Positions 1 through 15,898 are shown, counted from the first letter of the stretch. The stretch: 18,505 bases of DNA from Arcobacteraceae bacterium (GCA_048268245.1 JBLWVX010000041.1:1-18505), one strand, 5' to 3'. Translations and numbers: made by a program. The notes: a model not told the origin generated them from the letters alone.

Positions 1-1092
1 GGTATTTCATTCCCAGCTGGTTCTGGTCTTATTGCATTCGCAGGTGTTACTGGTATGATGCCATTAACTATGCCAGAGTCTGTATTAGTTAAATTCAAAG
101 GTGAAATGCAACCAGGAATTACTTTAAGAGACTTAGTAAATGCTATTCCTTACCAAGCTATCCAAGATGGATTATTAACTGTTCCTAAGAAAAACAAAAA
201 GAACATCTTCGCTGGTAAAATTATTGAGATTGCTGGATTACCAGATCTTAAAGTTGAGCAAGCATTCGAATTATCAGATTCAGCAGCAGAAAGATCAGCA
301 GCAGCTTGTTCTGTACAATTAGATAAAGAACCAATCATTGAGTACTTAGAGTCTAACATTGCTTTAATTGAAAAAATGATTGAAGAAGGTTACGAAGACG
401 CTAGAACTCTTCAAAGAAGAGCTGACAAAATGAAAGAATGGTTAAAGAACCCTGAGTTAATTCAACCAGATGAAGATGCAGAATATGCAGCTACTATCGA
501 AATTGATTTAAATACAATTACTGAGCCAATCTTAGCTTGTCCAAACGATCCAGATGATGTTGATACTTTAACAAACATCTTAGCTGATGAAAACAGAATC
601 CACAAAATTGACGAAGTATTCGTTGGTTCTTGTATGACTAATATCGGATTATTCAGAGCTTTAGGTGAAGTTCTTAAAGGTGAGGGTGAAGTTCCTACTA
701 AATTATGGGTTGCACCACCAACAAAAATGGATGAAGCTCAATTAACTGAAGAAGGATACTACGCTACATTTGCAGCAGCAGGTGCTAGATTAGAAATCCC
801 TGGATGTTCTTTATGTATGGGTAACCAAGCACAAGTATCTGAAGGTGCAGCAGTATTCTCTACATCTACAAGAAACTTTGATAACAGACTTGGAAAAGGT
901 TCTCAAGTTTACTTAGGATCTGCAGAAGTTGCAGCTGTAGCAGCACTTCTTGGAAGACTTCCATCTAAAGAAGAGTACATGGAAATCGTACCTAAAAAAA
1001 TTACTGAACAAAACAAAGATGGAGTTTATAAATACTTAAACTTCAACCAAGTTTCTAAAGAGCACTTAACTACTTTAGTTACTTCAAGATAA
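1..1092 (+). CDS. acnB: Aconitate hydratase B (bifunctional aconitase/2-methylisocitrate dehydratase), 5'-truncated by the window edge
   Basis: Frame is open from base 1 ([34 protein letters not shown]). AcnB motifs include [45 protein letters not shown] (Fe-S cysteines) and [12 protein letters not shown]. The ORF-track start at 55 is internal. Confidence 0.97.
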
Positions 1093-1130: not shown

Positions 1131-1215
1131 TTATAACTACTAATTACCAAATCTCAAAACCTGTCTTAATTTTATTTTTATAGTGTATAATTCAAAAAAT
1201 AAAAAAGGTTTTTAC

Positions 1216-2094
1216 TTGCCATATATCTTAAAAAAGATTAATGTATCAAAAGCTACGAAAATAGAAGAATTTTTACTAGAAAATACAAACTTAGATGAAA
1301 ATACAATTAATAGTTTAGTATCAAAGGGAAAAATTCTTAATGATAAAAACAAAAGATTACAAAAAAACCAAATAGTTAAAGATGGATACATAAATATATA
1401 TGTATTTGAGCCTAAAAGCAAGGGATTAAAACCTTTATTTGAAACTTTTCATTTTGCAATTTTTGATAAGCCCTCTGGTTTAAAAGTTCATCCAAGTGCT
1501 ATTGATGAAGAGTATACTTTACTTGATGAAATAGAGTTTTATTTGGGTAAAGATGCTTCATTAGTTCATAGAATTGATGCTGAAACATCTGGTTTAGTTT
1601 TAGTTTCAAAAAATCCATATAGCCAAATGGTTTTAAACTTAATGTTTGAAGAAAAGAGATACTCAAAAAAATATTTAGCTTATGTAGAAAATGAAATTAA
1701 AGAGAATTTAGTTATTGATAGTAAGATTGGTAACTCAAAGGGTTTAATCAAATTGAAAATGCAAGTTTGTGATAATGGAAAAGAATCTCTTACAAAAATT
1801 AAGCCAATATCATATAATAAAGATACAAATACAACTTTAGTTGAAGCTTCTCCTATTACTGGTAGACAACATCAAATAAGAGTACATTTAGATTCTATTG
1901 GACATAGGATTATAGGTGATCCAATTTATGGAATAGATGAAAAACTTTGTAATAAATTTCTTAGAAAAAATATGGATGAAAAAGAAAGATTAGAAGTAAC
2001 AGGTAAGAGTAGGTTAATGCTACATGCTTATTCTTTAGAGTTTACATTTTTAAACATAAAATATAAAATATCTTCAAAGCAAGAATTTAAGTAA
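1216..2094 (+). CDS. RluA/RluD-family RNA pseudouridine synthase
   Basis: Motifs DKPSGLKVHP, HRIDAETSGLVL (catalytic Asp), ITGRQHQIRVHL, IIGDPIYG and RLMLHA. Start placed at TTG 1216 behind AAAGG. The ORF-track GTG at 1183 abuts a TATAAT at 1186-1191 and is probably promoter DNA. Confidence 0.92.
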   Translation: MPYILKKINVSKATKIEEFLLENTNLDENTINSLVSKGKILNDKNKRLQKNQIVKDGYINIYVFEPKSKGLKPLFETFHFAIFDKPSGLKVHPSAIDEEYTLLDEIEFYLGKDASLVHRIDAETSGLVLVSKNPYSQMVLNLMFEEKRYSKKYLAYVENEIKENLVIDSKIGNSKGLIKLKMQVCDNGKESLTKIKPISYNKDTNTTLVEASPITGRQHQIRVHLDSIGHRIIGDPIYGIDEKLCNKFLRKNMDEKERLEVTGKSRLMLHAYSLEFTFLNIKYKISSKQEFK

Positions 2095-2125: not shown

Positions 2126-3196
2126 TTATTTTTCTTTACTTATTAAAGGAAGTTTATTAAGTAGATTTTCACAATACTCCCATTGATCCAATGTTTCTTT
2201 CCATTCTTTAGGAATAGCATTTACTCCTTTATATGCTCCTAAAACCATCCCAATAGCAATACCTCTTGAAGCATTATCTCCTCCAACCATTGCATTTGCT
2301 TGTAAGGCTCTTTTTAAGCCATTTTCTTTATCTGAATATTTTAATATAAAATAGACACTTGCAGGTAAAGTACCTTCTGTTGGACTAGCTTTTCCAACTT
2401 TTATAGGCTCACTTCTTCCTATATCCCAAAGTCTAGCCATACTAGTAATTGCTAAATCATCACTAAATTGCTCTTTTGAAAGTGCAGAATTAGGGTCTTT
2501 TTCTTCTTCATATTTTGCAATTGCTTGCTTTACTTTATCTTCATAAAATCCACCCATTAAGATTGCAACATCTTCTATGGCACTTCTTGGTGTTTCACCT
2601 CTTAAAACTCTATGTGTCACTCTTGCAAAAAACTCACCTCCACCTAGTGCATAGGTATTTTGATGAGTAAACATAGTTTTTCTTGCTACATCAACTACTT
2701 CTTCTTCAGTTTCATAATAAGAATGAGCAGCAACATGTCTAATCGCTGTTGCATTTGATGCACCACCTAGATATTGAACTTGTACTCCTTGTTTGACTTG
2801 ACCATATGTCTCTTTTGTCATTGTACAAATCCATGAACCCCAACCATTTTCAAGTCTATTCATCCAATGTGGAATTAATTTTGATACTTCAAAAGCTCTT
2901 GGTGGATTTGAAATCATTGCTAAATGCTCTAGAACTAAAATATTGTAATCTCCATAGTCCGTAGTACCTCCTGCTTTTTTCCCAGGATGATAGTTTCTTT
3001 GTCCCCAACCAATTCCATGAGTTTCACCTCCCATATATTCACCAGGATTCATAAATCTATCTATTGGTTTTTGACCATAAGCATTATAGATTTTTTTAGC
3101 ATCGTATTCATAATGTGTACCTAAACATAATGCATCTGCGACAATAGCTCCAAAAAATGTACCTTTTAAATTTTCTTCTTTTAATAGTTTATTCAT
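2126..3196 (-). CDS. ADP-ribosylglycohydrolase (DraG/ARH) superfamily protein with divergent metal-binding motifs
   Basis: N-terminal GTFFGAIVADALCLG, TTDYGD, and C-terminal ANAMVGGDNASRGIAIGMVLGAYKGVNAIPKEW match the family pattern. AAGG RBS lies upstream on the minus strand. Confidence 0.85.
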   Translation of the reverse strand: MNKLLKEENLKGTFFGAIVADALCLGTHYEYDAKKIYNAYGQKPIDRFMNPGEYMGGETHGIGWGQRNYHPGKKAGGTTDYGDYNILVLEHLAMISNPPRAFEVSKLIPHWMNRLENGWGSWICTMTKETYGQVKQGVQVQYLGGASNATAIRHVAAHSYYETEEEVVDVARKTMFTHQNTYALGGGEFFARVTHRVLRGETPRSAIEDVAILMGGFYEDKVKQAIAKYEEEKDPNSALSKEQFSDDLAITSMARLWDIGRSEPIKVGKASPTEGTLPASVYFILKYSDKENGLKRALQANAMVGGDNASRGIAIGMVLGAYKGVNAIPKEWKETLDQWEYCENLLNKLPLISKEK

Positions 3197-3325: not shown

Positions 3326-3345
3326 AGTAAATGAAGATTCATTTT
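3326..3345. promoter_or_regulatory. Palindromic operator candidate upstream of tetR
   Basis: AGTAAATGAAGATTCATTTT, 19/20 identical to 6457-6476 upstream of hydA. The core AAATGAA-ga-TTCATTT is palindromic. Confidence 0.7.
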
Positions 3346-3398
3346 CTCTTAACCATAAATATACTATTATTAGAAAAACATTATTTCAAGGATCTATC

Positions 3399-3995
3399 AT
3401 ATCTACTGCAAAAGAAACTAAAAAGAACAATATTATTGAAAACTCTTTAAAGCTTTTTTCTCAAAAAGGGTTTTATAATACAACTATTCCAGATATTGCA
3501 AAAGCCATGAAAATGAGTGTTGGAAATATGTATAATTACTTCTCTTCAAAAGAAGAGCTAGCAAAATATGCTATTAAATACTCTACAAATATTTTAGCAG
3601 CAGAATTAAGAGAAATAAATCAAATGGATATATCTTCAAAAGATAAAATATATTTATTTGTAAAGAACTATTTTGAAAATGTTAAAAATTCTCCTGAAGT
3701 AGTTGAGTATTTTTTAAGGGTTTACTTATCAAATAGAGAGGTATTTAAACAAGGTTGCGAAGGCTTTTTATGTGTAGGAGAGTTTGTAACAGAAGTTATG
3801 ATTCTTTTAGATGAAGGTGCTCAAAACAGAGAGTTTAGAGAACAAGAGTTTTTCCCAGCATTTGCCATGATTATGGGTTGTTTAGGTGGTTTTGCTTTTC
3901 TTTCAGGAGAAGCTGTACTTGACAAAGATTTATTAGAATATTCAGATGCAATTGCTGATAATATCTACAGAGCCTTAAAGTATGAAGAGTCATAA
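3399..3995 (+). CDS. TetR/AcrR-family transcriptional regulator, probable non-canonical ATA start
   Basis: In-frame sequence upstream of ATG 3507 encodes KETKKNNIIENSLKLFSQKGFYNTTIPDIAKA, continuing into MKMSVGNMYNYFSSKEEL to give a complete TetR HTH. There is no in-frame ATG, GTG or TTG between the TAA at 3288-3290 and 3507. AAGGA at 3388-3392 sits 6 nt before ATA 3399. Confidence 0.9.
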   Translation: MSTAKETKKNNIIENSLKLFSQKGFYNTTIPDIAKAMKMSVGNMYNYFSSKEELAKYAIKYSTNILAAELREINQMDISSKDKIYLFVKNYFENVKNSPEVVEYFLRVYLSNREVFKQGCEGFLCVGEFVTEVMILLDEGAQNREFREQEFFPAFAMIMGCLGGFAFLSGEAVLDKDLLEYSDAIADNIYRALKYEES

Positions 3996-4869
3996 GCCAA
4001 CAATTGTATGGTATCAAGCAGTTACTTGTAATGGCAATACACATTCACTTTTAAGTGCAAACTCTTCAAGATTAGAGCTATTTTTAAATAGCTTTGATCT
4101 TATATATCATCCATCACTTACAATTGACACAACTTTAGATGATATTTTAAAGTTAAAAAATATTGATTTTTTATTAGTTGAAGGAGCTATTACTTCTGAT
4201 GAAAAGTACTATTCAATTAATCAAAGCTCAACAAAAAATATTTTAGAAAAACTATCCCAAAAAGCAAAATATATAATAAGTGTAGGTTCATGTGCTTCTT
4301 ATGGAGGTGTTCATAAAAAGTTTGAACAAAATAATGATATTTTAGGTGTTGAAGAAATTATAGATACAAAAAAATATAAAAACTTAAAACATGAGATAGT
4401 AAATCTTACAGGTTGTCCTGTGCATCCTGAGTGGATACTTCAAACTGTTTTTTCTTTAAATAGTTTTGGAAAAATGAGTTTAGACTATGAAAAAAGACCA
4501 ACTGAACTTTATAGTAATTTAGCTCATCATGGATGTACTAGAAATGAGTACTTTGAATGGAAGATTGAAGGTGATTTTGGTCAAAAAGAGGGATGTTTAT
4601 TTTATGATCAAGGTTGTAGGGGACCCATGACTCATAGTTCTTGTAATAAGATTTTATGGAATGATGTGAGTTCTAAAACTAGAGCAGGTATGCCATGTAT
4701 TGGCTGTACTGAGAAAGATTTTCCAAGAGAAAATATGCTTGAAACAAAGAAAAATATTGGTATTCCTTTAGATGTACCACTTGGTATTCCTAAACGTGCA
4801 TATTTATCTATAACAGGTGTTGCTAAAACTTTTAAAATAGATAGACTAAATAAAAAACTAATGGACTAA
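3982..4869 (+). CDS. huaS: Cytoplasmic [NiFe]-hydrogenase small subunit, group 2 (2d-like; HuaS/HupS type)
   Basis: TCNGNTHS, LLVEGAI, VGSCASYGG, LTGCPVHP, HHGCTRNEYF, GCLFYDQGCRGPMTHSSC and SSKTRAGMPCIGC. No Tat signal and no membrane anchor. Overlaps the tetR end by 14 bp. Confidence 0.9.
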   Translation: MKSHKPTIVWYQAVTCNGNTHSLLSANSSRLELFLNSFDLIYHPSLTIDTTLDDILKLKNIDFLLVEGAITSDEKYYSINQSSTKNILEKLSQKAKYIISVGSCASYGGVHKKFEQNNDILGVEEIIDTKKYKNLKHEIVNLTGCPVHPEWILQTVFSLNSFGKMSLDYEKRPTELYSNLAHHGCTRNEYFEWKIEGDFGQKEGCLFYDQGCRGPMTHSSCNKILWNDVSSKTRAGMPCIGCTEKDFPRENMLETKKNIGIPLDVPLGIPKRAYLSITGVAKTFKIDRLNKKLMD

Positions 4870-4871
4870 TT

Positions 4872-6224
4872 TTGAAAACAGTAGATATAGTTGAAAGAAT
4901 AGAGGGTGAAGCTAGGCTTAATTGTACTTGGGAAAATGGCTTTGTCAAAGATACCCAAATAGATTTTTTAAATTTTAGAGGTTTTGAGTATATCTTAGAA
5001 GGTAAACCAGCTTTAGATGCACTTGTATACACTCCAAGAATTTGTGGAATTTGTGGTCAGGCTCATTTAAAAGCTACAGTTGAAGCTTTGGAAAATATCT
5101 ACAAAAGTGTAAATGAAGAACTAGTTGTTACAAATAAAGCTAAGATTTTAAGAGAAATTGGTTTAAATATTGAAATAATTGATTCACATATAAAATGGTT
5201 TTATATGTTTATTTTACCTGATGTAATTAAACTTAAAGAAAATGATTTAAAAGAGTACTCACCATTAAAAGGTAAAAGGTGGTTAGAAGCTTGTAAAACA
5301 GCTAGTGAAACTATAAAAGCTTTAGCAATTATAGGAGGGCAATGGCCTCATACTTCGTATATGATACCAGGTGGAGTAGTTAGTGACCCAACTCTACTTG
5401 ACTTAACTTCAATGATGAACTATTTGGATTTAGCAATTAACTTTTTTGAAAACTCTATTGCAGGAGTTAGTTTTGATAGGTATTTATCTTTTAATAGTGT
5501 AGATGATTTAAATATTTTAAATGGTGATTTAAAATATTTTACAAACTTGAGTTTTGAATACTCACTACAAAAATACGGAACTTCATATGATAGACATTTA
5601 GCTCTAAGTGATTCTTCTATTTCTAAAAGGGGAAAAATTAGACAAAGACTTACAGATAAACTTGACTTAAATAAAATAAAAGAGAATACTGATAAAACAT
5701 TTACAGTCAACCAGAGTCAAAATAAACACAAACATACTTGGTCTAAAGCAGTTACTTACAATTCAATATTTTATGAAACTGGACCTTTATCTAGGGCGAT
5801 GGTGTCAAATAGAGAGTTTATTTATGATCTTCATAAATCATATAAAGACTCAGTATTTACAAGAGTAATGGCACGAGTTGATGAAATAGCTCACCTTTTA
5901 CATAGTACAAAAGAGTTAATAAAACAAGTAGATATAAGTGAAGAGTCTTATATAAAACCCAAAATATCACTAAAAGATATACCAAAAGCTAATGCTAAAT
6001 CAGTAGTTGAAGCTTGTAGAGGTTCCCTATATCATAATGTATCAATTGAAAAAGGAATTATTACAAAATATGATGTAATCACTCCAACGGTTTGGAATTT
6101 AGGTCCTGCTATAAAAGATGAAAAAGGAGTGGCTCAAAAAGCAATAATTGGCTCACCTTCACTAGATATTGCAAAAATAGTTCTTAGAAGCTTTGATGTT
6201 TGCTCTGTTTGTACAACTCACTAA
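4872..6224 (+). CDS. huaL: Cytoplasmic [NiFe]-hydrogenase large subunit, group 2 (2d-like; HuaL/HupL type)
   Basis: RIEGEA, FRGFEYIL, L1 motif PRICGICGQAH, GGQWPH, VEACRG, and L2 motif RSFDVCSVCTTH ending at the stop. TTG start. Confidence 0.92.
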   Translation: MKTVDIVERIEGEARLNCTWENGFVKDTQIDFLNFRGFEYILEGKPALDALVYTPRICGICGQAHLKATVEALENIYKSVNEELVVTNKAKILREIGLNIEIIDSHIKWFYMFILPDVIKLKENDLKEYSPLKGKRWLEACKTASETIKALAIIGGQWPHTSYMIPGGVVSDPTLLDLTSMMNYLDLAINFFENSIAGVSFDRYLSFNSVDDLNILNGDLKYFTNLSFEYSLQKYGTSYDRHLALSDSSISKRGKIRQRLTDKLDLNKIKENTDKTFTVNQSQNKHKHTWSKAVTYNSIFYETGPLSRAMVSNREFIYDLHKSYKDSVFTRVMARVDEIAHLLHSTKELIKQVDISEESYIKPKISLKDIPKANAKSVVEACRGSLYHNVSIEKGIITKYDVITPTVWNLGPAIKDEKGVAQKAIIGSPSLDIAKIVLRSFDVCSVCTTH

Positions 6225-6312
6225 GTAAAATAAACTGTTACCTTTTTAAACATAAGAAAAAATATTTTATAAATAATAATTCTATTATAAAAGCCAACTT
6301 TAAACTTTATAT

Positions 6313-6368
6313 ATGAATAATCATTCATTAAATAACCATTTGATGGTTACTTGATGAATATCTATTCA
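6313..6368. promoter_or_regulatory. Cluster of palindromic sites upstream of hydA
   Basis: TGAAT-N4-ATTCA at 6314-6327 and 6355-6368 flank TAACCAT-ttg-ATGGTTA at 6333-6349. TTGAT-gaat-ATCTA at 6351-6364 is 9/10 to the FNR consensus. Confidence 0.55.
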
Positions 6369-6456
6369 GAAAACTTGACTTTAAAGCTATTTTATTGCTA
6401 GAAAACCTTAAATATTATTAAGTAAACAATAAGTTTCATATTGTTAATTTTACAAT

Positions 6457-6476
6457 AGTAAATGAATATTCATTTT
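6457..6476. promoter_or_regulatory. Palindromic operator candidate upstream of hydA
   Basis: Perfect 16-bp palindrome AAATGAATATTCATTT (6460-6475) between a candidate -10 TACAAT (6451-6456) and RBS AGGAG (6478-6482). Confidence 0.75.
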
Positions 6477-6489
6477 TAGGGAGAAATAT

Positions 6490-7731
6490 ATGATAGATTC
6501 TACAGAGATGGTAAAAAAAGTTTTTACCCAAAAATCAGGTAGAGTGGATACAAATAAAGGTGACGAATATTATAACTCTTTATTTGAGAAAGCTAAAAAT
6601 AGATTATCAACTTTAAGAGCGCAAGAGCCACTTAAAGATATTGATATGATGGATGTAATTGAGAGTGAAGGTGTAAATAGAAGAGATTTTATGAAGTGGG
6701 TTAGTGCTACAACTGCAACACTTATGTTACCTCCTATGTTTGCTCCTTTAGTTGCTGAAGCAACTGAACTTATGAATAGAGTTCCTGTTGTTTGGCTTGA
6801 ATTACAAGACTGTGCTGGTAATACAGAAGCACTTTTAAGAAGTAGTGCTCCAACAGTTGATGATTTATTATTTGATGTATTAAGTTTAGAGTTCCACCAT
6901 GCTTTAATGGCAGGTGCTGGACATGATGCTGAACATCAATTAGATGAAGCAATTGAGCACTTTAAAGATAACTACTTATTATTTGTAGAGGGTTCTATTC
7001 CTATGGGAATGAATGGAAACTATGGAACTATTGGACCATCAGGTGAGACTTTCCATGACCACTTACAAAGAATCTCTAAACATGCAGCAGCTGTTGTAGC
7101 TGTTGGTACTTGTGCAACATTTGGTGGAGTTCCTGCTGCATCTCCAAATCCAACTGGAGCTGTTGGTGTTATGGATATTGTAAAAGGGAAGCCAATTATT
7201 AATATTCCTGCATGTCCTGCAAACCCTGCAAATATGGTTGGTGTTGTTTTACACTATATCTTAACAGGTCAAGTTCCAGAACTTGATTCTCTTCTTAGAC
7301 CTAAGTTTGCATTTGGATATAGAATTCATGATAACTGTGAAAGAAGAGCACACTTTGATGCAGGTGAATTTGTAGAAGAGTGGGGTGATGTTGGAGCTCA
7401 AAATAACTGGTGTTTATATAAAGTTGGTTGTAAAGGTCCTATGACATTTAACAACTGTTCAATTATTAGATATAACGAGGGAACAAACTGGCCTATTGGT
7501 GCAGGTCATGGATGTATTGGATGTTCCGAGCCAGACTTCTGGGATAAATATGCTTATCAAAGACCAATGGCAAGTGCAAATATAAAAGCTCCAACAGGTG
7601 GAGTTGAAAAAACAGTTGATGAGTTTGGATTAGGATTATTAACAGCTACAACTGTAGGTATTGGTGTTCATGCAGTTGCAAGTGCAGTTGCTGGTAAAAA
7701 ATCAGGTGAAGTAGAAGGAGAAGATAAATAA
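6490..7731 (+). CDS. hydA: Membrane-bound uptake [NiFe]-hydrogenase small subunit (group 1b), Tat-exported
   Basis: Tat motif NRRDFMK at residues 63-69, FVEGSIP, VGTCATFGG, IHDNCERR, WCLYKVGCKGP, WPIGAGHGCIGC, and a C-terminal TM helix with conserved His (GIGVHAVAS). Strong RBS. Confidence 0.95.
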   Translation: MIDSTEMVKKVFTQKSGRVDTNKGDEYYNSLFEKAKNRLSTLRAQEPLKDIDMMDVIESEGVNRRDFMKWVSATTATLMLPPMFAPLVAEATELMNRVPVVWLELQDCAGNTEALLRSSAPTVDDLLFDVLSLEFHHALMAGAGHDAEHQLDEAIEHFKDNYLLFVEGSIPMGMNGNYGTIGPSGETFHDHLQRISKHAAAVVAVGTCATFGGVPAASPNPTGAVGVMDIVKGKPIINIPACPANPANMVGVVLHYILTGQVPELDSLLRPKFAFGYRIHDNCERRAHFDAGEFVEEWGDVGAQNNWCLYKVGCKGPMTFNNCSIIRYNEGTNWPIGAGHGCIGCSEPDFWDKYAYQRPMASANIKAPTGGVEKTVDEFGLGLLTATTVGIGVHAVASAVAGKKSGEVEGEDK

Positions 7732-9473
7732 TGGCAAAAAAACACTTAGTAATTGACCCAATTACAAGAATTGAAGGACATCTTAGAATTGAGGCAATCA
7801 TAGATGAAAACAATGTTGTAACAGATGCATACTCTTCTTCTACTATGTTTAGAGGAATTGAAGAGATTTTAAAAGGAAGAGACCCAAGAGATTGCGGTTT
7901 ACTAGCAATGAGAATTTGTGGTGTATGTACAGGTACTCACTATCAAAGATCTATTGAAGCAGTTGAGCATGCTTTTAATGTTACTATTCCAAAGAATGCA
8001 AGGTTAGTGAGAAACTTAATTCAAGGTGCACTTTATGTACATGATCATATTGTTCACTTTTATCATTTACATGCTCTTGACTGGGTTGATATTACAGAAG
8101 CACTTAAAGCTGACCCTAAAAAAACTGTAGCAGAAGCTCAAAAATGGGCAAAAGTAGCAGGCGATAAACCATGGAATGCAAGTGAAGATAACTATAAAGC
8201 TGTACAAGAAAGAGTTGAAAAGTATATCAAACAAGGAAGATTAGGTATTTTTGGAAATGCTTACTGGGGATCAAAAGGTTTTAAACTTACTCCTGAGCAA
8301 AACTTAATTGGTTTATCTCATTACCTTGATGCTCTAGAAATCCAAAGAGAATTAGGTAAGATGATGGCTATCTTTGGTGGTAAAAATCCTCACCCTCAAT
8401 CATTTGTTGTTGGTGGTGTAACTTGTGTTCAAGATATTAAAAACCCTGCAAGAATTGCTGAGTTTAAACAAATACTAAAAGCTGGAAGAAAGTTCACTAA
8501 GCAAGCATATTTACCAGATGTTTACATGGCTGGAACTATGTATGCTGATGAAGCACTTGAAGGAATTGGTGGAGGTTTAGGAAACTTCATGTCTTATGGT
8601 GATTTCAACATGGATGATTTACCATTCTATGAATCTTCTAAATTATTCCCATCAGGTATTGTAAAAAATAAAGATTTATCTAAAGTATATGAAGTAAATC
8701 AAGAAAAGATTACAGAAGATGTTACTCATGCTTGGTATGAAGGAAATACAAATCTTCACCCATACGATGGTGAAACTAAACCTAACTTTACAGGTTTTGG
8801 TAAAAAAGAAGATAACATCGCTTACTTAGATACTGAAAATAAATACTCTTGGATTAAATCACCATTATATGATGATGAGAGAATGGAAGTAGGACCACTT
8901 GCTAGAATGATTGTAGGTGTTGCAAAAGGTGATGAGAGAATCTCTAAATATGTAACTACTTTCTTAAAAAATGGTAACTTACCAACAAAAGTTTTATTCT
9001 CAACAGTAGGAAGAACAGCAGCAAGAGCTATTGAAACAGAACTTATGTGTGATGTTATGATGGAATGGTGTGATGAATTAGCATCAAATGTTGCTCATGG
9101 AGACTTATCTACATGGACTGAGTTTGACTTTGACTCTGTATCAGGTGACGCACAAGGTTATGGTATGGCTGAAGCTCCAAGAGGAGGATTAGGTCATTGG
9201 GTTAAAATCAAAGATGGAAAAGTTGCAAATTATCAAGCAGTAGTTCCTTCAACTTGGAATGCAGCTCCAAGAGATTATAAAGGTAGACTTGGTGCTTATG
9301 AAGCTTCACTTGTTGGAACAAAAGTAGCAAACCCCGATCAACCATTAGAAATTTTAAGAACTGTTCATAGTTTTGACCCTTGTATTGCTTGTGCTGTGCA
9401 TATTATTGATACAAATGGTAAAGAGTTAGGTGTTTATAAAGTAGATCCAATAGGAGGAACTAGCTGTGCCTAA
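7731..9473 (+). CDS. hydB: Membrane-bound uptake [NiFe]-hydrogenase large subunit (group 1b)
   Basis: DPITRIEGHLRIE, L1 MRICGVCTGTH, HFYHLHALDWVD, GGKNPHP, EAPRGGLGHW, and L2 HSFDPCIACAVH followed by a 23-aa cleavable extension. Confidence 0.97.
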   Translation: MAKKHLVIDPITRIEGHLRIEAIIDENNVVTDAYSSSTMFRGIEEILKGRDPRDCGLLAMRICGVCTGTHYQRSIEAVEHAFNVTIPKNARLVRNLIQGALYVHDHIVHFYHLHALDWVDITEALKADPKKTVAEAQKWAKVAGDKPWNASEDNYKAVQERVEKYIKQGRLGIFGNAYWGSKGFKLTPEQNLIGLSHYLDALEIQRELGKMMAIFGGKNPHPQSFVVGGVTCVQDIKNPARIAEFKQILKAGRKFTKQAYLPDVYMAGTMYADEALEGIGGGLGNFMSYGDFNMDDLPFYESSKLFPSGIVKNKDLSKVYEVNQEKITEDVTHAWYEGNTNLHPYDGETKPNFTGFGKKEDNIAYLDTENKYSWIKSPLYDDERMEVGPLARMIVGVAKGDERISKYVTTFLKNGNLPTKVLFSTVGRTAARAIETELMCDVMMEWCDELASNVAHGDLSTWTEFDFDSVSGDAQGYGMAEAPRGGLGHWVKIKDGKVANYQAVVPSTWNAAPRDYKGRLGAYEASLVGTKVANPDQPLEILRTVHSFDPCIACAVHIIDTNGKELGVYKVDPIGGTSCA

Positions 9474-10179
9474 AATAAAAAAGGTTAAAAGAATGACTGT
9501 AGCCATGCGAATTATACACTGGGTAACAGTGTTAAGCATGATTATTGCAGTTGTAACCGGTCTTTATATAGGTCACCCTTATTACCAAACTTTTATTGCT
9601 GATCCTGCTGTGGATAAGTATGTTATGGCTTGGAATAGATGGGGGCATTTTATTGTTGCAATTATCTTTGATGTAACTGCAGTTTTAGTTGGGTATTTAT
9701 ACTTTTTCTCAAGGTTTGAAAAGCCTTATAAGAAGTTGATTCCAAATAAACAAAACCTTGTAGAGTTTTGGGAAGTTTTTTTAAATTTAATTACTTTAAA
9801 TAGAAGAAAGAAGTTTGATTCAACTTATAGTGATAGTTTTAATACTGTATTCTTTACAGTATTTCACTTATTATTAGTATTTATGTTATTTACAGGTTTA
9901 CAGTTATATGTACACGCACTAGCTTCTGGAACATCTTCAATTGGTGCTTGGTGGCCTGCAATGCTTCACTTAGTTACTGATTGGACACTATATGTATTTG
10001 GTGGAAATATGGGTGTTAGATACGCACACCACTTTAGTATGTATCTAATTATCATGTGGGTTATGTTCCATGTTTATTATCAAGTATGGAGAACAATCTT
10101 CTGGCAAGAAGGAGACATCGCTATTGTAGTTGGTGGTTCTAAATTTGTAAAAGAAGAAGAGGATAAAAAACAGGATTAA
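9466..10179 (+). CDS. hydC: Ni/Fe-hydrogenase b-type cytochrome subunit
   Basis: Hydrophobic helices with candidate heme-ligand His (RIIHW, WGHF, AHHF, MFHVY). GTG start behind AGGAGG, overlapping the hydB end. Confidence 0.95.
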   Translation: MPKIKKVKRMTVAMRIIHWVTVLSMIIAVVTGLYIGHPYYQTFIADPAVDKYVMAWNRWGHFIVAIIFDVTAVLVGYLYFFSRFEKPYKKLIPNKQNLVEFWEVFLNLITLNRRKKFDSTYSDSFNTVFFTVFHLLLVFMLFTGLQLYVHALASGTSSIGAWWPAMLHLVTDWTLYVFGGNMGVRYAHHFSMYLIIMWVMFHVYYQVWRTIFWQEGDIAIVVGGSKFVKEEEDKKQD

Positions 10180-10199
10180 TTCCTGTTTTTATCTTTTTT
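10162..10199 (+). terminator. Terminator or attenuating hairpin overlapping the hydC stop
   Basis: GATAAAAAACAGGA-ttaat-TCCTGTTTTTATC (one bulged A) followed by TTTTTT. Confidence 0.75.
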
Positions 10200-10267
10200 A
10201 TAAGCAGTATATAAATAGTGTTTATAAAAGGGATACACAAAAAAATAGATAACAACGGAGTTATAAA

Positions 10268-10855
10268 ATGAAGAAAAATATAGTTGTTGGTGTAGGAAAT
10301 ATGCTTTTTAAAGATGAGGGTGTTGGTATTTATGCATCTGAGTACTTAAAACAAAACTATGAGTTTGATGGGGATTTAGAGATTATAGATGGTGGAACAT
10401 TAGGTTTTAAACTAATGACATATTTTCAAGAGTATGAAAATGTAATTATTCTTGATACTGTATCTATTGAAGAGAATCCTGGGGAAATATATAGACTTCC
10501 TTCTGATGTACTTTTAGGTATGGGAAACTATAGAAAAACTGCCCATGAAGTAGAAATCGTTGAAATGCTTGAGATTGTATCTGTTTTAGACTCTCATGCT
10601 AATGTTACTATTTTAGGAATTATCCCAGAAGATATAATTTCCGTTGGTATTGGTTTAACTGAAACTATTGAGAATAAATTTGAAGAGTTTATTTTAAATG
10701 CCCTAAAAGAGATAGAATCACTTGGCGTAAAAACTAAAAAAGTAAATAATATAGCCATACCAGATATCGTAAAAAGTATGATTGGTAGTTATAATGGTGA
10801 ACACTTAAGTAGAATTCCAAACGAAGAAGATATAAGACATGCAACTAATATATAA
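10268..10855 (+). CDS. hydD: Hydrogenase maturation endopeptidase (HyaD/HybD family)
   Basis: VGVGNMLFKDEGVG, IIDGGTLG, IILDTV and TAHEV motifs. Located after hydC, with a GGAG RBS. Confidence 0.95.
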   Translation: MKKNIVVGVGNMLFKDEGVGIYASEYLKQNYEFDGDLEIIDGGTLGFKLMTYFQEYENVIILDTVSIEENPGEIYRLPSDVLLGMGNYRKTAHEVEIVEMLEIVSVLDSHANVTILGIIPEDIISVGIGLTETIENKFEEFILNALKEIESLGVKTKKVNNIAIPDIVKSMIGSYNGEHLSRIPNEEDIRHATNI

Positions 10856-12377
10856 AATAGAATTTAATACAACTAACTCATATTTTAAATACATAATAAA
10901 TAAACTAATAAAAGAAGCAAATGTAAATGCCACTTGTAAACAATACAAAGGCTTTATAATCTTAAAACTTGAAGAGAGTGCCCAAAATATTGAGAGTTTT
11001 TTCGCCTTACTTGAAAAAAAGCTTCCTGTTTCGATTTTTTTAGGAAAGTCATATGTAATAGAAGCGTTTGATGAAACAATAGAAGAGTTAGAGTGTAAAG
11101 AAATAAAACAAAATCTTACACTTTTAACAAATGATGCCATTAAAGATATTATAGAAAATAATGATATAGATTTTTTAAATGATATTGTAAAAATCTCAAA
11201 AGGTGGAATCTCAAGATTTGAAACACACAATGGTTTAAAAGACTTGTTTTTACCAAATAAAGCTTTAAGAGAAGAGTTTGAAAGCAAAGGTCATGAAGTA
11301 AAACTTTTAATCACAGACTTAAATAAAATCACAGACTTATTTGATGTAAATGCAAAAGATTTACAACTTTTATGCTCTATTGAAAGACCTTTAGTAAAAC
11401 TAAAGTTTAAACTTTTACAAAACAAAGAAAATGAGTACTCATCTACAAACTTTATTTATGCAAAGATACCAGATGATAAAGAGACAGTTTTATTTGCTCA
11501 GGCTTTAAAACAAAAAGATATTTCTCATATACTTTATGTAAATGATGATGTTTATCAAGATGGACTAAAAGTTACATACTTTAATGATGAGAACCTAATC
11601 ATACATGGAGATAAAGGTCTTTTCCCTAAATTTGACTATCTTGCAAATAAGAAGTTTAACTCTTCAAAAGAGTATTTTGATGAAAATGGTGGAGTTTATA
11701 AAGCAATTCTTGCTCAAAACAATAAAAGACTTGTTCCAAGTGCAGGAGTTTACTTCTCTTCTAACTCAAATAAAAGCTCAGTTTTAATGAACCTTCCAAC
11801 AAAGGGGTTAAAAGAAGTAATAGCAATACCAAATATAATAAACTCTTTTGAAAACTGTTTAGAAGAGATAACAGAGATTGACGAGTTTTGTGAAAGATTA
11901 GTTTCAAACTATAAAAATAAATTCCCAACATATTTTGAAGATATGAGTGTAGATAAAAATGCTCATGGATTTGAATCTATTATAAATATGTGTGCAAAAG
12001 CCTTGGGTATGAAAGGTGGAGCAAAAGAGTTTGAAGATACAGCTTTAAGTATAAATATAAAAAGTGGAATACAAATAGATATGAAACTTGTAAATTTAGA
12101 TGGGGTTAACTATCTAGATTATAGAAGAACTGTTCAATCTATCATGTCATATAAGATGGCAGATGTTGATAATGCTACGTTAGCTTACTCTTTTTATGAA
12201 AGTCTTAGTGAGTTTATCTGTAACTATACAGATGAGGTTGCAAAAGAGATAAAAGCAAAAGATGTAGTAATGAGTGGAGGTATGTTCTCAAACTCTATTT
12301 TACTTTCAAAAACACATAAAAAACTAAGTAAAAACTATAACTTTATTCTTCCTAAAGAGTATCCTTTAGATTACTAA
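10839..12377 (+). CDS. hydE: HydE-type hydrogenase accessory protein (HypF-related)
   Basis: 512 aa, overlapping hydD as in Campylobacterota hydABCDE operons. HypF-like segments LCSIERPLVKL and VVMSGGMFSNSILL. Confidence 0.8.
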   Translation: MQLIYKIEFNTTNSYFKYIINKLIKEANVNATCKQYKGFIILKLEESAQNIESFFALLEKKLPVSIFLGKSYVIEAFDETIEELECKEIKQNLTLLTNDAIKDIIENNDIDFLNDIVKISKGGISRFETHNGLKDLFLPNKALREEFESKGHEVKLLITDLNKITDLFDVNAKDLQLLCSIERPLVKLKFKLLQNKENEYSSTNFIYAKIPDDKETVLFAQALKQKDISHILYVNDDVYQDGLKVTYFNDENLIIHGDKGLFPKFDYLANKKFNSSKEYFDENGGVYKAILAQNNKRLVPSAGVYFSSNSNKSSVLMNLPTKGLKEVIAIPNIINSFENCLEEITEIDEFCERLVSNYKNKFPTYFEDMSVDKNAHGFESIINMCAKALGMKGGAKEFEDTALSINIKSGIQIDMKLVNLDGVNYLDYRRTVQSIMSYKMADVDNATLAYSFYESLSEFICNYTDEVAKEIKAKDVVMSGGMFSNSILLSKTHKKLSKNYNFILPKEYPLDY

Positions 12378-12627: not shown

Positions 12628-13110
12628 ATGAAAAAAATGTTGTTATTAATTGGATTAGTATTTGCAGTAAATGTAAATGCTGTTAGTTATAGTGGTGAAA
12701 ACTATAATATAAATACTAGTATGTGTTATCCATACAAGTGGTCACACTCGACACAGCCATCTTCTGATAGATGTTTTGATATTAGAATGATAGGTACACC
12801 TAATGTAGGTTGGGATCCAAGACCTTATGGTTCTGCAACTTCAACAGTACTTGATCATTCAGGTAGTTATATGGTTGTTGCTGTTGATGTATTTGGTGTT
12901 CCTGCAAGTTTGCCAGAAGTAGAATTTAATTATAACAAATTAACTCCTTATAAATATGATCATATTATTAATTATAATAGCAATCCAGCTATCGTCAATG
13001 GTAAGAGATATTGGTATAAAATAACAATGCCTATTACATCAGGATATTTAAAGGTGAGAAGACCAAACAGTACAGCAATTGATTATGCAGATCAAATCTA
13101 TGTAAAGTAA
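12628..13110 (+). CDS. orfA: secreted protein, possibly DUF4879/YolA-like
   Basis: AAGGA RBS and Sec signal peptide MKKMLLLIGLVFAVNVNA. Segments IGTPNVGWD, STVLDHSGSYMVVAV, VNGKRYW and DQIYVK resemble my recollection of the DUF4879 pattern (not verified). Confidence 0.7.
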   Translation: MKKMLLLIGLVFAVNVNAVSYSGENYNINTSMCYPYKWSHSTQPSSDRCFDIRMIGTPNVGWDPRPYGSATSTVLDHSGSYMVVAVDVFGVPASLPEVEFNYNKLTPYKYDHIINYNSNPAIVNGKRYWYKITMPITSGYLKVRRPNSTAIDYADQIYVK

Positions 13111-13114
13111 AAAG

Positions 13115-13136
13115 AGAGTGAGGATTTCTTCACTCT
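13115..13136 (+). terminator. Hairpin after orfA (weak terminator or mRNA-stabilising stem)
   Basis: AGAGTGAGG-attt-CTTCACTCT stem with one G-U pair and a poor U-tail. Confidence 0.55.
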
Positions 13137-13158
13137 TGAAATATATAAAAGGGCAAAA

Positions 13159-13710
13159 ATGACAGTAAGTACTAGTAATAATTTAAATCATTTGATTCAA
13201 AAAGTTCAATCATCTAATAAAACACAAAATACAAAAGAAAGTTCTATGATTCAAAAAGAAGAGCTTGGGGAAAAAAAAGATTCTGAAAGATATAATTTTT
13301 TAACTGCAAATGGCTGGTTGGATAATTCAATAATTATGAAAGATGAGAAATTGAATGCAGAATTTAGAAATTATGTAGATAATATGAGCGAAGATGAATA
13401 TTTCTCTTTCCTTACTTCAATGGCTTGTGATTTTGCACCAGGATTTGGTAATAATATAAATAATTTGCCTCTTAACGAAGCTCCTTCAAAAAAAGACCCA
13501 AACATTGAATTTTCTTCATTATCAAGTATAAAAAAATACTTTACAGATGAATATAATGAAGTATTAACAAATACTGCTAAATGGGGTGGAGATACAACAA
13601 ATGCGATAAATACAATAACTAATCTTTTAGATTTTTTTAAAAATTATGAATCGCAAGAACAAGAAAACCAATATATTGCATTAGGACAGAGTAGTAAAAA
13701 TGCTTACTAA
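13159..13710 (+). CDS. orfB: hypothetical protein, paralog of 14557-15111
   Basis: 183-aa ORF with AAGGG RBS. Shares RYNFLxxxGWxxNSIIxKDEKL, PSxKDPxxEF, AK(W/Y)GGD and an identical LLDFFKNYESQEQENQYIALGQ tail with its paralog. Confidence 0.85.
   Translation: MTVSTSNNLNHLIQKVQSSNKTQNTKESSMIQKEELGEKKDSERYNFLTANGWLDNSIIMKDEKLNAEFRNYVDNMSEDEYFSFLTSMACDFAPGFGNNINNLPLNEAPSKKDPNIEFSSLSSIKKYFTDEYNEVLTNTAKWGGDTTNAINTITNLLDFFKNYESQEQENQYIALGQSSKNAY
13623..13689 (+). repeat. Direct repeat R2 copy a (67 bp, 3' end of orfB)
   Basis: Identical to 15027-15093; weaker similarity continues for about 33 bp. Confidence 0.95.
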
Positions 13711-14428
13711 TTATTCAAAATATATAATTGTTTGTCTTACATTAGTAGTTATTGGAACTTTTTATGTATTCTCTTATAAAGAAGAAAAAGAAATAAAAAC
13801 TACTAATGTAATAGAAACAAAAATTGCAGAAGTTGAAGTACCTAAAGAAATTCTAATCGAAAGTGTGGTTACTAAACCCAAAATCAAATATACTGAAAAA
13901 GAAAAATCAAAAGTAATTGAAGATAAAAAAACTACAGAAGTAGTGCAAAATATTATTTTAGATGAATTAGAACAAAATGTAATTACCAAAAAAGAAGAAA
14001 CTACACTTTATAAAAATAAAGATGGTTTATATAGTATAACAATGAAAAGTGATGTAAAAATAATTGATACAGCTACAGGAGCATCGTATATTGTACTAAA
14101 TGGAACATTAAATGTAGCAGGTATTCAAGAGAAATTTACAATGTCATTTAATGAATATTATGAAGAGTACCTTGATAATATTTATATAAAAGTTACAAAT
14201 AGTGAAACTAAAGTTACAGCAAAATGTGATGGAACTTTTTTAAGTGGTGTTTCTTCTGAGTATACGTATAATATCGGTCTTGATATTTCTGGAGAATTAC
14301 TATCCTGCTATGTAGTAAATGAAAAAAGAAGAACTAATCCAATAAATGAAATAAAAGGGGAAATTGGTGACACCCTAAAAAAAATTGAGAATCCTGAAAT
14401 AAATGCTTTAAAATTACCAATAAAATAG
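13700..14428 (+). CDS. orfC: hypothetical membrane-anchored protein
   Basis: N-terminal hydrophobic helix YIIVCLTLVVIGTFYVFSY, a K/E/T-rich linker, and a beta-rich C-terminal region with two Cys. Overlaps the orfB end by 11 bp. Confidence 0.8.
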   Translation: MLTNYSKYIIVCLTLVVIGTFYVFSYKEEKEIKTTNVIETKIAEVEVPKEILIESVVTKPKIKYTEKEKSKVIEDKKTTEVVQNIILDELEQNVITKKEETTLYKNKDGLYSITMKSDVKIIDTATGASYIVLNGTLNVAGIQEKFTMSFNEYYEEYLDNIYIKVTNSETKVTAKCDGTFLSGVSSEYTYNIGLDISGELLSCYVVNEKRRTNPINEIKGEIGDTLKKIENPEINALKLPIK

Positions 14429-14446
14429 ACCATTTAAGCAATTTAC

Positions 14447-14548
14447 TTAATAAACATAATTATTTAATATCTATTAATAGTTTTACTTTAATAATAAATG
14501 AAGTATTTTAGTATTAATATATAATATTTTTATGTTTATTTAAGTGAA
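14447..14548. repeat. Direct repeat R1 copy b
   Basis: 100/102 identical to 12484-12585. Runs straight into GGGG-TAAA-ATG of orfB'. Confidence 0.95.
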
Positions 14549-14556
14549 GGGGTAAA

Positions 14557-15111
14557 ATGACTATAAATTCAAACTCTGCAGCTATACATACTTATAACAA
14601 TATATCTTTAAAAAGAAAAATTGTTGAAGAAACGAAAAGCATACAAGATATACAAACTGAAAAAATTGATGATAAAAGTGAAACTGGTATAGACAGATAT
14701 AATTTCTTAGGAATTGAAGGATGGTTTAGTAATTCAATTATAGAAAAAGATGAGAAGTTAAAAGAAAATTTTGAAAGTTATTTAAATGATATGACTAAAG
14801 GAGAATATATCTCAACTATGATTTCTTTTGCACATGATTTTATGCCTCAGCTTGTTCAAAATGAAAATGGAGAAGTTATAAATGGACCATCTAGAAAAGA
14901 CCCAGATACTGAGTTTGCATCAATAACAAGTATTATTAACTACTTTCAAAATAGTATCAAAATAGCAGAAGCTAATGTAGCCAAATATGGTGGTGATGGA
15001 AAAGAGTCTCTTGACACATTAAAAGGTCTTTTAGATTTTTTTAAAAATTATGAATCGCAAGAACAAGAAAACCAATATATTGCATTAGGACAGGGTAATA
15101 AAAATGCCTAA
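14557..15111 (+). CDS. orfB': hypothetical protein, paralog of 13159-13710
   Basis: 184-aa ORF with AAGGGG RBS; shared motifs as listed for orfB. Confidence 0.85.
   Translation: MTINSNSAAIHTYNNISLKRKIVEETKSIQDIQTEKIDDKSETGIDRYNFLGIEGWFSNSIIEKDEKLKENFESYLNDMTKGEYISTMISFAHDFMPQLVQNENGEVINGPSRKDPDTEFASITSIINYFQNSIKIAEANVAKYGGDGKESLDTLKGLLDFFKNYESQEQENQYIALGQGNKNA
15027..15093 (+). repeat. Direct repeat R2 copy b (67 bp, 3' end of orfB')
   Basis: Identical to 13623-13689. Confidence 0.95.
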
Positions 15112-15148
15112 AAGTATTTCAAAATAGAACTAAAAAAAGGAGTTTATA

Positions 15149-15898
15149 ATGCAAGTAACAAATAATACATATACAAACTATTACAATCAAACAAATAACA
15201 CAACAAAAGTAGAAAAAACAGAAGAAAGCTCTTTTGCTTCAATGTTGACAGGTTCACAAAAAGAAGAGGAAGTTGGTAGATATGTAAAATATATGGATCA
15301 ATTTAATTATTTTGATTCTTTATCAGATGAAGATAGAAAAGTCTTTAGAGAAATACTAAAAGATGATAAGATAACAATGGCTGAGATGGATAGTTTGAGT
15401 TATGAGCAAGCAGTAAGATTTGAGAAAGTAGCTTTTCCTCAAGGAAATTTTTCTAAAGAACAACTTAATAATACTCCTATTGTGAACATACCAAATCAAG
15501 GAGTTCATATGTTATTTGCTACAAGAACAACAAATGATAAAACTTTTAATGAAGCTTTATATAGAACAGCAAGAGAAATAGATGACGACTCATACAGAAG
15601 GACTATTTTTAGAGAAGTAAAAACAAATGTAACACAAGTGCATTTTGGAGATCCTCTAATTGAATCATTTAACGTAATAGCATATGAAAATGCAAAAAAT
15701 CTTTGGAAAGAAGATATTGATAAGATGAATATAAACTTTGATAAATTCTTGACAGATGTAATTACATTACATGAAAAGGCACTAGCAAATCCTAAAACAC
15801 ATCCTGCGGTTATAGACCAACACCAAGAAAAACTTGATGGATATAATATAATCTTGAAACATTACAATGACATAAAAAAAGAATCAATTTATGCCTAA
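15149..15898 (+). CDS. orfD: hypothetical protein with an N/T-rich low-complexity N-terminus
   Basis: 249-aa ORF with strong AAGGAG RBS. No signal peptide or TM helix; no family recognised. Confidence 0.85.
   Translation: MQVTNNTYTNYYNQTNNTTKVEKTEESSFASMLTGSQKEEEVGRYVKYMDQFNYFDSLSDEDRKVFREILKDDKITMAEMDSLSYEQAVRFEKVAFPQGNFSKEQLNNTPIVNIPNQGVHMLFATRTTNDKTFNEALYRTAREIDDDSYRRTIFREVKTNVTQVHFGDPLIESFNVIAYENAKNLWKEDIDKMNINFDKFLTDVITLHEKALANPKTHPAVIDQHQEKLDGYNIILKHYNDIKKESIYA

Follow-up and report, generated by a model that had tools for sequence, protein, structure and literature searches.

A TetR-type regulator encoded with a group 2 hydrogenase and a candidate operator before the uptake hydrogenase genes of an Arcobacteraceae bacterium

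Described systems and the tetR-huaSL locus

The H2-sensing cascades HoxBC-HoxJ-HoxA of Cupriavidus/Ralstonia and HupUV-HupT-HupR of Rhodobacter and Bradyrhizobium act through a histidine kinase (HoxJ/HupT) and an NtrC-type regulator. We analyzed an 18,505-nt stretch of DNA from an Arcobacteraceae bacterium (GCA_048268245.1, JBLWVX010000041.1:1-18505; hereafter the window), which is contig C41 of a 2.68-Mb genome with 27.9% G+C. Here, a gene for a TetR-family regulator, tetR, is joined to huaS and huaL, which encode the subunits of a cytoplasmic [NiFe] hydrogenase, and this tetR-huaSL module is followed by a membrane-bound uptake hydrogenase operon beginning with hydA. An initial annotation of the window had proposed that the soluble hydrogenase signals H2 or redox state directly to TetR, which would repress both operons from a shared operator. 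Comparison of related genomes supports the view that a regulator tied to the tetR-huaSL module acts at a palindrome before hydA.

As in the HoxBC/HupUV cascades, a cytoplasmic group 2 [NiFe] enzyme with neither an export signal nor a C-terminal extension of the large subunit is encoded beside uptake hydrogenase genes, which in the cascades are H2-responsive. In contrast to them, the window has a TetR-type repressor in place of a kinase and an NtrC-type regulator, and the enzyme is assigned, by orthology with the literature, to group 2d, not 2b. In agreement with the initial annotation, a Pfam scan of 17 open reading frames (ORFs) of the window revealed no domain of a histidine kinase or response regulator. 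Since the defining kinase and NtrC-type partners are absent, tetR-huaSL is not a member of the HoxBC/HupUV system, which is its nearest functional counterpart. Where those cascades activate, control would here be exerted by derepression at the transcription start.

With classical TetR repressors (TetR/tetO, QacR, AcrR, BetI, Campylobacter CmeR) the regulator shares an N-terminal helix-turn-helix, a nine-helix fold, a 14-16-bp palindrome overlapping promoters near its own gene and, as for BetI, co-transcription with an enzyme. It differs from them by an invariant Cys-x4-Cys, by unusual conservation of the whole protein over two phyla, by putative unlinked targets (hyp, nrf), by an own operon mostly lacking an operator, by two half-site spacings and by weak or non-canonical start codons. 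As in thiol-based regulators (NemR of the TetR family; OxyR, Spx, RsrA), conserved cysteines could switch DNA binding by redox state; unlike in these, the reductant would come from H2 via a dedicated hydrogenase, and we know of no thiol regulator reduced in this way.

In Sulfurospirillum multivorans a 'TetR-like repressor upstream of hupSL' has been mentioned (Kruse et al. 2017, PMC5357620; papers given by PMC number are cited from excerpts, to which the statements resting on them apply). This is most likely the orthologous gene; that paper, however, suggests possible repression of hupSL only, and in the excerpts neither an operator nor a sensing role of the hydrogenase is named, nor is the gene connected with hydABC, hyp or nrf. 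The remark was all that was found on a TetR-hydrogenase operator in literature that leaves most subscription journals outside its coverage, and neither a link to hydABC, hyp or nrf nor hydrogenase-to-TetR signalling was found in full-text literature of the same coverage. By the literature naming of A. butzleri orthologs (PMC12286921), HuaSL belongs to the same enzyme family as the group 2d 'Aquificae-type' Hua, or Aquifex hydrogenase III, and metagenome-assembled genomes (MAGs) of Aquificota show the tetR-huaSL-hydA arrangement together with the palindrome. The role proposed for Aquifex hydrogenase III is catalytic, namely providing reductant for CO2 fixation, whereas many hosts here are heterotrophic Arcobacteraceae. 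Whether the cytoplasmic group 2 (2d) enzymes of Campylobacterota and Aquificota are sensors, reductant suppliers or H2 recyclers has been debated since about 2003-2008. For the remark on the TetR-like repressor, Kruse et al. cite Goris 2014. The idea that the group 2 enzyme senses H2 is already old (Nakagawa 2007, as cited in PMC4584964), and the regulation of hydrogen uptake in free-living Campylobacterota and Aquificota is described as not known (PMC6682613, PMC4584964).

The palindrome before hydA and its association with tetR-huaSL

A 20-mer occurs as AGTAAATGAAGATTCATTTT at 3326-3345 upstream of tetR and as AGTAAATGAATATTCATTTT at 6457-6476 before the ribosome-binding site of hydA, with 19 of 20 positions identical, just as the initial annotation had reported. 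The pattern is expected 0.07 times in the window, and at least three matches were obtained in 0 of 200 dinucleotide-preserving shuffles. The exact 16-mer AAATGAANATTCATTT was found at three places in the genome, the two window copies and C6:9494. The latter lies inside a 379-aa ORF, where it encodes N-E-D-S-F, and was read as a chance match. With up to two mismatches, the 16-mer showed no genome-wide excess over the reversed control (75/77 vs. 75/70).

The genome-wide scan and the phylogenetic footprinting proposed in the initial annotation were both performed. The scan used a 20-bp matrix derived from 44 hydA-proximal sites in relatives and from no site of the window. The two window sites ranked first (6458, 25.0 bits) and second (3327, 20.2 bits) in the whole genome, and a further intergenic site upstream of hydA ranked fifth (6309, 17.0 bits); weaker matches (C6:109350 and others) fall inside ORFs. 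Of the 21 exact occurrences of AATGA-N4-TCATT in the genome, only the two window sites are intergenic.

For footprinting, the core of the hydA site was defined as AATGA-N4-TCATT with at most one mismatch within about 60 nt of the hydA start (background, 0.075 matches per 230 nt). Of 56 loci from module-bearing genomes, 48 have the core just before the ribosome-binding site of hydA; they span Arcobacteraceae and nine other Campylobacterales families, and the core was also found in Aquificota. Arcobacteraceae account for 31/37 loci, and the six misses have degenerate or 5-4-5 versions (TGAAT-N4-ATTCA) at the same place. In eight other families the core was found in 14/16 loci, the two misses being loci of family f13 in which hydA lies 10-39 nt after huaL, and in the further, Campylobacteraceae-like family f11 it was found in both module-bearing loci. 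One genome (G145) has the core at hydA and a tetR fragment at the contig end. The hydA-proximal site of most other families, gTGAATGAtTATTCATT, satisfies both spacing readings. Sulfurospirillum loci show the order tetR-huaS-huaL-hydA with AATGAATAATCATT before hydA, and three Aquificota loci have AATGAATATTCATT or AATGATTATTCATT between huaL and hydA.

In contrast, the whole 420 nt upstream of hydA was searched in 29 genomes without a TetR ortholog (11 of the family, 8 of f11 and 10 of family f26), and the exact core was found in none of them and a one-mismatch core in one. The palindrome is thus conserved in orthologous hydA promoters where the module is present and decayed or missing in module-less genomes. 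Within genus g10, AGTAAATGAAyATTCATTTT is kept in all six TetR-bearing genomes aligned, in one of them with one mismatch. In all seven TetR-less genomes the aligned site has decayed at G and C positions, with G-to-T and C-to-A changes, one form being TATTAATATTTACTTTT; these genomes retain the flanking ATAAGTTT and the Shine-Dalgarno sequence, and their HydA is 83-87% identical to that of the window. Such TetR-less congeners amount to natural 'knock-outs'. Among ten f11 genomes sampled for hydA alone, the palindrome occurred only in G430 and G435. In these two, chosen by the palindrome, a tetR gene (55% identity) was later found about 2.8 kb before hydA; they are the two TetR carriers among the ten.

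The distribution of the module was determined with cut-offs of E ≤ 2e-38 for TetR and E ≤ 1e-50 for HuaL. Among 151 sampled family genomes, 96 have a TetR ortholog, 94 have HuaL and 93 have both; three discordant genomes carry TetR only and one HuaL only, and each of the four is a fragmented assembly (in G148, 92 nt separate the start of huaL from a contig end). In 40 of 40 family loci huaS directly follows tetR; 36 of these 40 also have hydA-hydB downstream, and the gap is 124-419 nt in 33 loci. Order-wide, a TetR ortholog was found in 145/301 genomes, with 0/24 sampled in f11 and 0/24 in f26. At 20 loci from eight other families, tetR is followed by huaS (20/20), huaL (19/20; one contig ends early) and hydA (16/20), and conservation is higher in TetR (52-61% identity) than in HuaS (39-54%) or HuaL (33-45%). 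Aquificota MAGs encode TetR orthologs at 51-62% identity, with tetR-huaS-huaL in four of six loci. In three family genomes, insertions of about 1-9 kb part huaS from huaL (L059 in genome G114, L071 and L075), and the order tetR-huaS...huaL-hydA is kept.

In the window, the hydA palindrome begins 3 nt past the box TACAAT and stops 3 nt short of the Shine-Dalgarno sequence. Transcription of hydA should therefore start inside the palindrome, and bound TetR should repress it. The -10 boxes named here come from alignment with relatives and not from a consensus promoter/terminator scan, which detected 24 promoter-like sites vs. 20.2 in shuffles and, in the interval from huaL to hydA, no terminator-like site. 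TetR is the sole DNA-binding protein of the tetR-huaSL module. Judged from sequence, it is very probably the protein that binds the palindromes, and we consider it likely that TetR represses hydA. At -103 to -124 relative to the start of hydA, 22/37 TetR-bearing and 0/11 TetR-less family loci have a direct repeat, GCTA-N7-GCTA. It is possibly the binding site of a separate activator, apparently one of response-regulator type, a kind of regulator for which the window has no gene.

The tetR copy of the palindrome lies against or across the -35 region predicted for the tetR promoter. A site at a fixed -64 to -72 from the tetR start, at the -35 edge of a conserved -10 box, was found in about 14 of 41 Arcobacteraceae loci, including those of the own genus. 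Upstream of tetR in 20 loci of other families, the core with abutting half-sites was found in 0/20 and scattered one-mismatch 5-4-5 matches in 3/20, near the background of 0.064 per 200 nt. The proposal that TetR represses both its own operon and hydABCDE thus gains ground at hydA, where the site tracks the module, and at tetR has a matching site in part of Arcobacteraceae only. Predicted autoregulation is not general, and the shared operator is a feature of the window's own genome, not a conserved core of the system. Because 17 of the 20 other-family loci have no detectable operator upstream of tetR-huaSL, HuaSL would mostly not be a target, though it is always co-encoded with TetR.

The half-site also occurs in a second spacing. 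TGAAT-N4-ATTCA (TGAATNNNNATTCA) has seven exact matches in the own genome, five of them intergenic, compared to 3/19 and 1/9 intergenic matches for controls. Two of the five lie upstream of hydA and the others upstream of hypB, nrfH and an SQR-like gene. The predicted regulon is wider than the initial annotation had proposed, as it also takes in hypBCDEA, nrfHA and the SQR-like gene. The hypB site was found in 4/5 TetR-bearing vs. 0/5 TetR-less g10 genomes, and the nrfH site in 5/5 TetR-bearing vs. 0/1 TetR-less genomes. As hypB and nrfH are unlinked to tetR, local deletion cannot explain the loss of their sites. Directly past the nrfH site (C2, about 26814-26829) lies a perfect FNR/CRP-type box, cTTGATctaaATCAAg, which is kept in TetR-bearing relatives; nrfHA may combine an FNR-type activator with a TetR site. 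Whole-genome counts of TGAATNNNNATTCA in the 151 family genomes were discarded since chance matches in coding sequences dominate (own genome, 7 vs. control, 16). Taking all sites together, the half-site AATGAAT is firm, and its exact register and the number of dimers are tentative.

The regulator, HuaSL and a possible signal

The tetR frame is open from 3291 and contains no ATG, GTG or TTG before the helix-turn-helix; the first ATG (3507) lies within the recognition helix. The start is most likely the ATA at 3399, six bases past AAGGA, which yields a protein of 198 aa. Non-canonical starts, consisting of AAGGA, 4-6 nt and ATA (6 loci) or ATT (11 loci), were found in 17/41 Arcobacteraceae loci. 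The codon is that of the Ile in 'ISTxKExKKN', and most other orthologs start with TTG or GTG. Public annotations of the ortholog differ in length, with 198/199 aa (ATA), 185/186 aa (later ATT) or 159/162 aa (internal ATG). The weak start codon may keep the repressor scarce. Between the huaS ATG (3982) and the tetR stop (3993-3995) the two genes overlap by 14 nt, confirming the overlap noted in the initial annotation.

TetR matches Pfam PF00440 (TetR_N) with 53.8 bits (cut-off 24, E = 1.7e-14). The AlphaFold2 model (pLDDT 89.9) has nine helices; in a Foldseek search its best match was B. subtilis FadR (TM 0.79), with TM values of 0.72-0.80 to FadR, RutR and other TetR structures. With this modelled all-helical, two-domain fold, the regulator truly belongs to the TetR family. 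In NCBIfam no specific family was found for it, all matches being far below the cut-offs, and PDB searches by sequence gave matches at the level of the helix-turn-helix only. Cys120-x4-Cys125, located in the loop entering helix 7, is invariant in 61/61 orthologs. Named relatives of the protein are found in Arcobacter, Aliarcobacter, Malaciobacter, Halarcobacter and Poseidonibacter. At L182 (Hydrogenimonas MAG, 4001-5174), in G430 and G435 and in genomes of f4/f10, the gene is present in two to four paralogous copies of 46-56% identity, arranged in tandem or within a few kb of each other, which hints at sub-specialised repressors for several hydrogenase operons.

HuaS has no twin-arginine motif RRxFxK at its N-terminus, unlike HydA with RRDFMKW, so that the initial annotation was right in describing a group 2 enzyme without export signal. 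In HuaL the metal-binding motifs RxCGxC and DxCxxC (D-x-C-x-x-C-x-x-H) are invariant, and HuaL and 27 orthologs end at C-x-x-C-T-T-H (CSVCTTH in HuaL); HydB, by contrast, has a C-terminal extension of 23 aa. A large subunit lacking such an extension, which is otherwise cut off by a protease, is a trait of regulatory (group 2b) hydrogenases. HuaSL is tentatively placed in group 2d, by orthology with literature naming: A. butzleri proteins are members of the 90%-identity cluster to which the neighbouring TetR belongs, A. butzleri huaSL was classed as group 2d (Hua; PMC12286921), and Aquificota show the same gene order. By its Pfam domains HuaS is a three-cluster small subunit, and its last 45 residues are conserved. 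The first cluster motif reads C-x-G-N in both small subunits of the window (TCNGN in HuaS, DCAGN in HydA) and CNGN in 25 of 28 HuaS orthologs, the others having CNAN, CNGD or CYGC. Standard [NiFe] small subunits have C-x-G-C at this place, and the proximal cluster may have an unusual ligand.

In the account that we favour, TetR would be made from the same transcript as HuaSL, recognise inverted AATGAAT half-sites and, on the hydA palindrome, block transcription of hydABCD(E). A second strong site would lie at the -35 edge of its own promoter, and further sites would be the 5-4-5 versions upstream of hydA, hypBCDEA, nrfHA and the SQR-like gene. The releasing signal would report H2 or the reducing state of the cell and would be made by HuaSL, which would act on Cys120-x4-Cys125 of TetR directly or via a reduced carrier. 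Hydrogen uptake, hydrogenase maturation and nitrite ammonification would thereby be induced by H2, with no kinase involved. We give this account as a whole, with repression of hyd, hyp and nrf and release by HuaSL, a chance a little short of even. The step from HuaSL to TetR is, taken by itself, possible rather than probable. It seems rather unlikely that HuaSL is a dedicated H2 sensor whose iron-sulfur chain reduces Cys120-x4-Cys125, or else a metal or cluster that this pair carries in the dimer, and that TetR then leaves the AATGAAT repeats.

An input from HuaSL is favoured because tetR and huaSL form one overlapping unit over two phyla, with huaSL mostly lacking an operator, because TetR shows an invariant Cys pair and unusual conservation along its full length, and because HuaL is without the C-terminal extension of HydB. 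It is further favoured because the group 2 enzyme shows little transcript or activity where studied: in S. multivorans, hupL was transcribed at a very low level or not detectably (PMC5357620), and S. denitrificans had no soluble H2-uptake activity, although the gene was transcribed (PMC4584964). Finally, H2 induced hynAB (2.3- to 6.2-fold) and nrfA (4-fold) of A. butzleri (PMC12286921), which are operons with a site in relatives. The supplement of that paper contains no mention of TetR and no fold-changes for the tetR gene.

Several observations weigh against this account. Transcripts of huaSL drop with H2 in A. butzleri (PMC12286921), and hydABC is constitutive in S. multivorans (PMC5357620). 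The compared genomes are related, so that the counts overstate independence; there are roughly four to six independent contrasts (within g10, within f11, families f26, g5 and g8, and Aquificota). In TetR-less genomes the sequence upstream of hydA is in part non-homologous, probably by deletion, which makes the loss of distal sites there trivial. The two half-site spacings, abutting 7+7 and 5-4-5, fit one fixed dimer geometry poorly. Moreover, TetR binding, its effect on expression and the transcription starts are predictions from sequence.

Further such points would also suit an arrangement in which TetR controls hyd, hyp and nrf and HuaSL is not the sensor but a co-expressed enzyme, for example a supplier of low-potential reductant, with TetR sensing a ligand, oxidants or electrophiles via its own cysteines. 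On two Aquificaceae contigs, tetR lies beside a different hydrogenase operon with the motif in front and without huaSL between, and no fused TetR-HuaS protein was found among longer proteins at E ≤ 1e-20, which is a weak test. A catalytic role, the supply of reductant, has been proposed for the group 2d enzyme of Aquifex (cited in PMC4584964 and PMC5357620). Co-transcription with enzymes and binding of small ligands are common among TetR regulators, and the closest folds are those of acyl-CoA-binding FadR and uracil-binding RutR. However, tetR and huaSL are gained and lost together, with 93 genomes carrying both and the four discordant ones being fragmented assemblies, and the overlapping tetR-huaS arrangement holds over two phyla. 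Most lineages have no operator before tetR-huaSL, so that huaSL is not there as a target, and the absence of detected soluble activity in S. denitrificans (PMC4584964) also counts against this arrangement. We regard the arrangement as a real though doubtful possibility.

It is quite improbable that another factor, such as a global respiratory regulator, binds the palindromes and that the link to tetR-huaSL reflects shared inheritance of a hydrogenase island. The half-site in two spacings could be taken in this way, 5-4-5 palindromes being typical of CRP/FNR-type factors, as could the tracking of the module by GCTA-N7-GCTA, which shows whole promoter regions to be co-inherited. Yet the unlinked hypB and nrfH sites vanish along with tetR, nrfH has a separate FNR-type box (TTGAT-N4-ATCAA) adjoining the site, and in TetR-less congeners with a closely similar HydA the hydA site decays in place. 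A handful of intergenic sites per genome also fits a global regulator poorly.

To read the repeat as a chance duplicate or as a hairpin of the hydA leader RNA, not as a protein-binding site, is scarcely credible in spite of the AT-rich genome and the third, coding-region copy of the 16-mer, given the shuffles, the top matrix ranks, a hairpin no better than shuffles (-2.3 kcal/mol, z-score -0.21), no compensatory change among six arm departures in 32 distinct hydA sites (0/6), no Rfam match in the window and the position of the tetR copy upstream of the inferred promoter. Arms kept as sequence and not as pairs, together with the weak hairpin, point to a DNA site for a protein.

The circuit that we favour is now concrete, with one regulator gene, an operator with base-level coordinates and a predicted regulon of hydABC, hypBCDEA, nrfHA and the SQR-like gene. 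If HuaSL provides the input, H2 sensing would have a second solution that differs in mechanism and needs no kinase, with a new type of sensor, and the unexplained group 2d hydrogenases common to Campylobacterota and Aquificota would gain a function. As a compact part it could serve in synthetic H2 biosensors. Even without the HuaSL step, a conserved hydrogen regulon over two phyla would remain, of which we found no printed description.

Coordinates and neighbouring genes

Table 1. Features of the window, and 5-4-5 sites elsewhere in the genome (contig given)
Feature	Position	Strand	Remarks
Aconitase fragment	1-1092		Pfam
Pseudouridine synthase	1183-2094		Pfam
ADP-ribosylglycohydrolase	2126-3196	-	Pfam
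Candidate operator copy upstream of tetR, AAATGAAGATTCATTT	3329-3344		15/16 positions palindromic, one central mismatch
Inferred -10 box TATTAT of tetR-huaSL promoter	3365-3370	+	aligns with 'TGtATTATcAT'-type box in relatives
Shine-Dalgarno AAGGA of tetR	3388-3392	+	kept as (T)AAGGA before I-S-T codons in relatives
tetR, TetR-family regulator, 198 aa	3399-3995	+	Pfam TetR_N, 53.8 bits
huaS, cytoplasmic [NiFe] hydrogenase small subunit, 295 aa	3982-4869	+	Pfam Oxidored_q6 and NiFe_hyd_SSU_C
huaL, large subunit, 450 aa, TTG start	4872-6224	+	Pfam NiFeSe_Hases
Distal site 1, TGAATAATCATTCA, 5-4-5 spacing	6314-6327		kept at -176/-177 in own genus
Distal site 2, TGAATATCTATTCA, 5-4-5 spacing	6355-6368		at -135/-136 in 3/4 own-genus loci including the window
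Direct repeat GCTA-N7-GCTA	6386-6400	+	11-bp period
Inferred -10 box TACAAT of hydA promoter	6451-6456	+	TACAAT/TACATT kept 3-5 nt before palindrome in relatives
Candidate main operator at hydA, AAATGAAT joined to ATTCATTT = AAATGAATATTCATTT	6460-6475		perfect 16-bp palindrome between -10 box and Shine-Dalgarno
Shine-Dalgarno GGGAG of hydA	6479-6483		
hydA, hydB, hydC, hydD, hydE-like, membrane-bound uptake hydrogenase operon	6490-12377	+	presumed target; Pfam
hydA	6490-7731		Tat motif RRDFMKW
5-4-5 site before hypB of hypBCDEA	C44:3816-3829		34 nt upstream
5-4-5 site before nrfH of nrfHA	C2:26796-26809		69 nt upstream
5-4-5 site before Tat-signal FAD oxidoreductase (flavoprotein)	C4:17174-17187		SQR/FccB type

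The positions of the features are compiled in Table 1. According to Pfam, hydC encodes a cytochrome b and hydD a protease. The hydE-like ORF (10839-12377, 512 aa) overlaps hydD by 17 nt; just its last approximately 110 residues match the Kae1-like C-terminal subdomain of HypF, and the first approximately 400 have no assignment. Downstream of it, past unassigned ORFs, lies hypF. The five ORFs between the hydE-like gene and hypF (12628-15898) belong to no Pfam or NCBIfam family, except for one weak sub-threshold match to FemAB, and their position inside the hydrogenase cluster suggests accessory roles.

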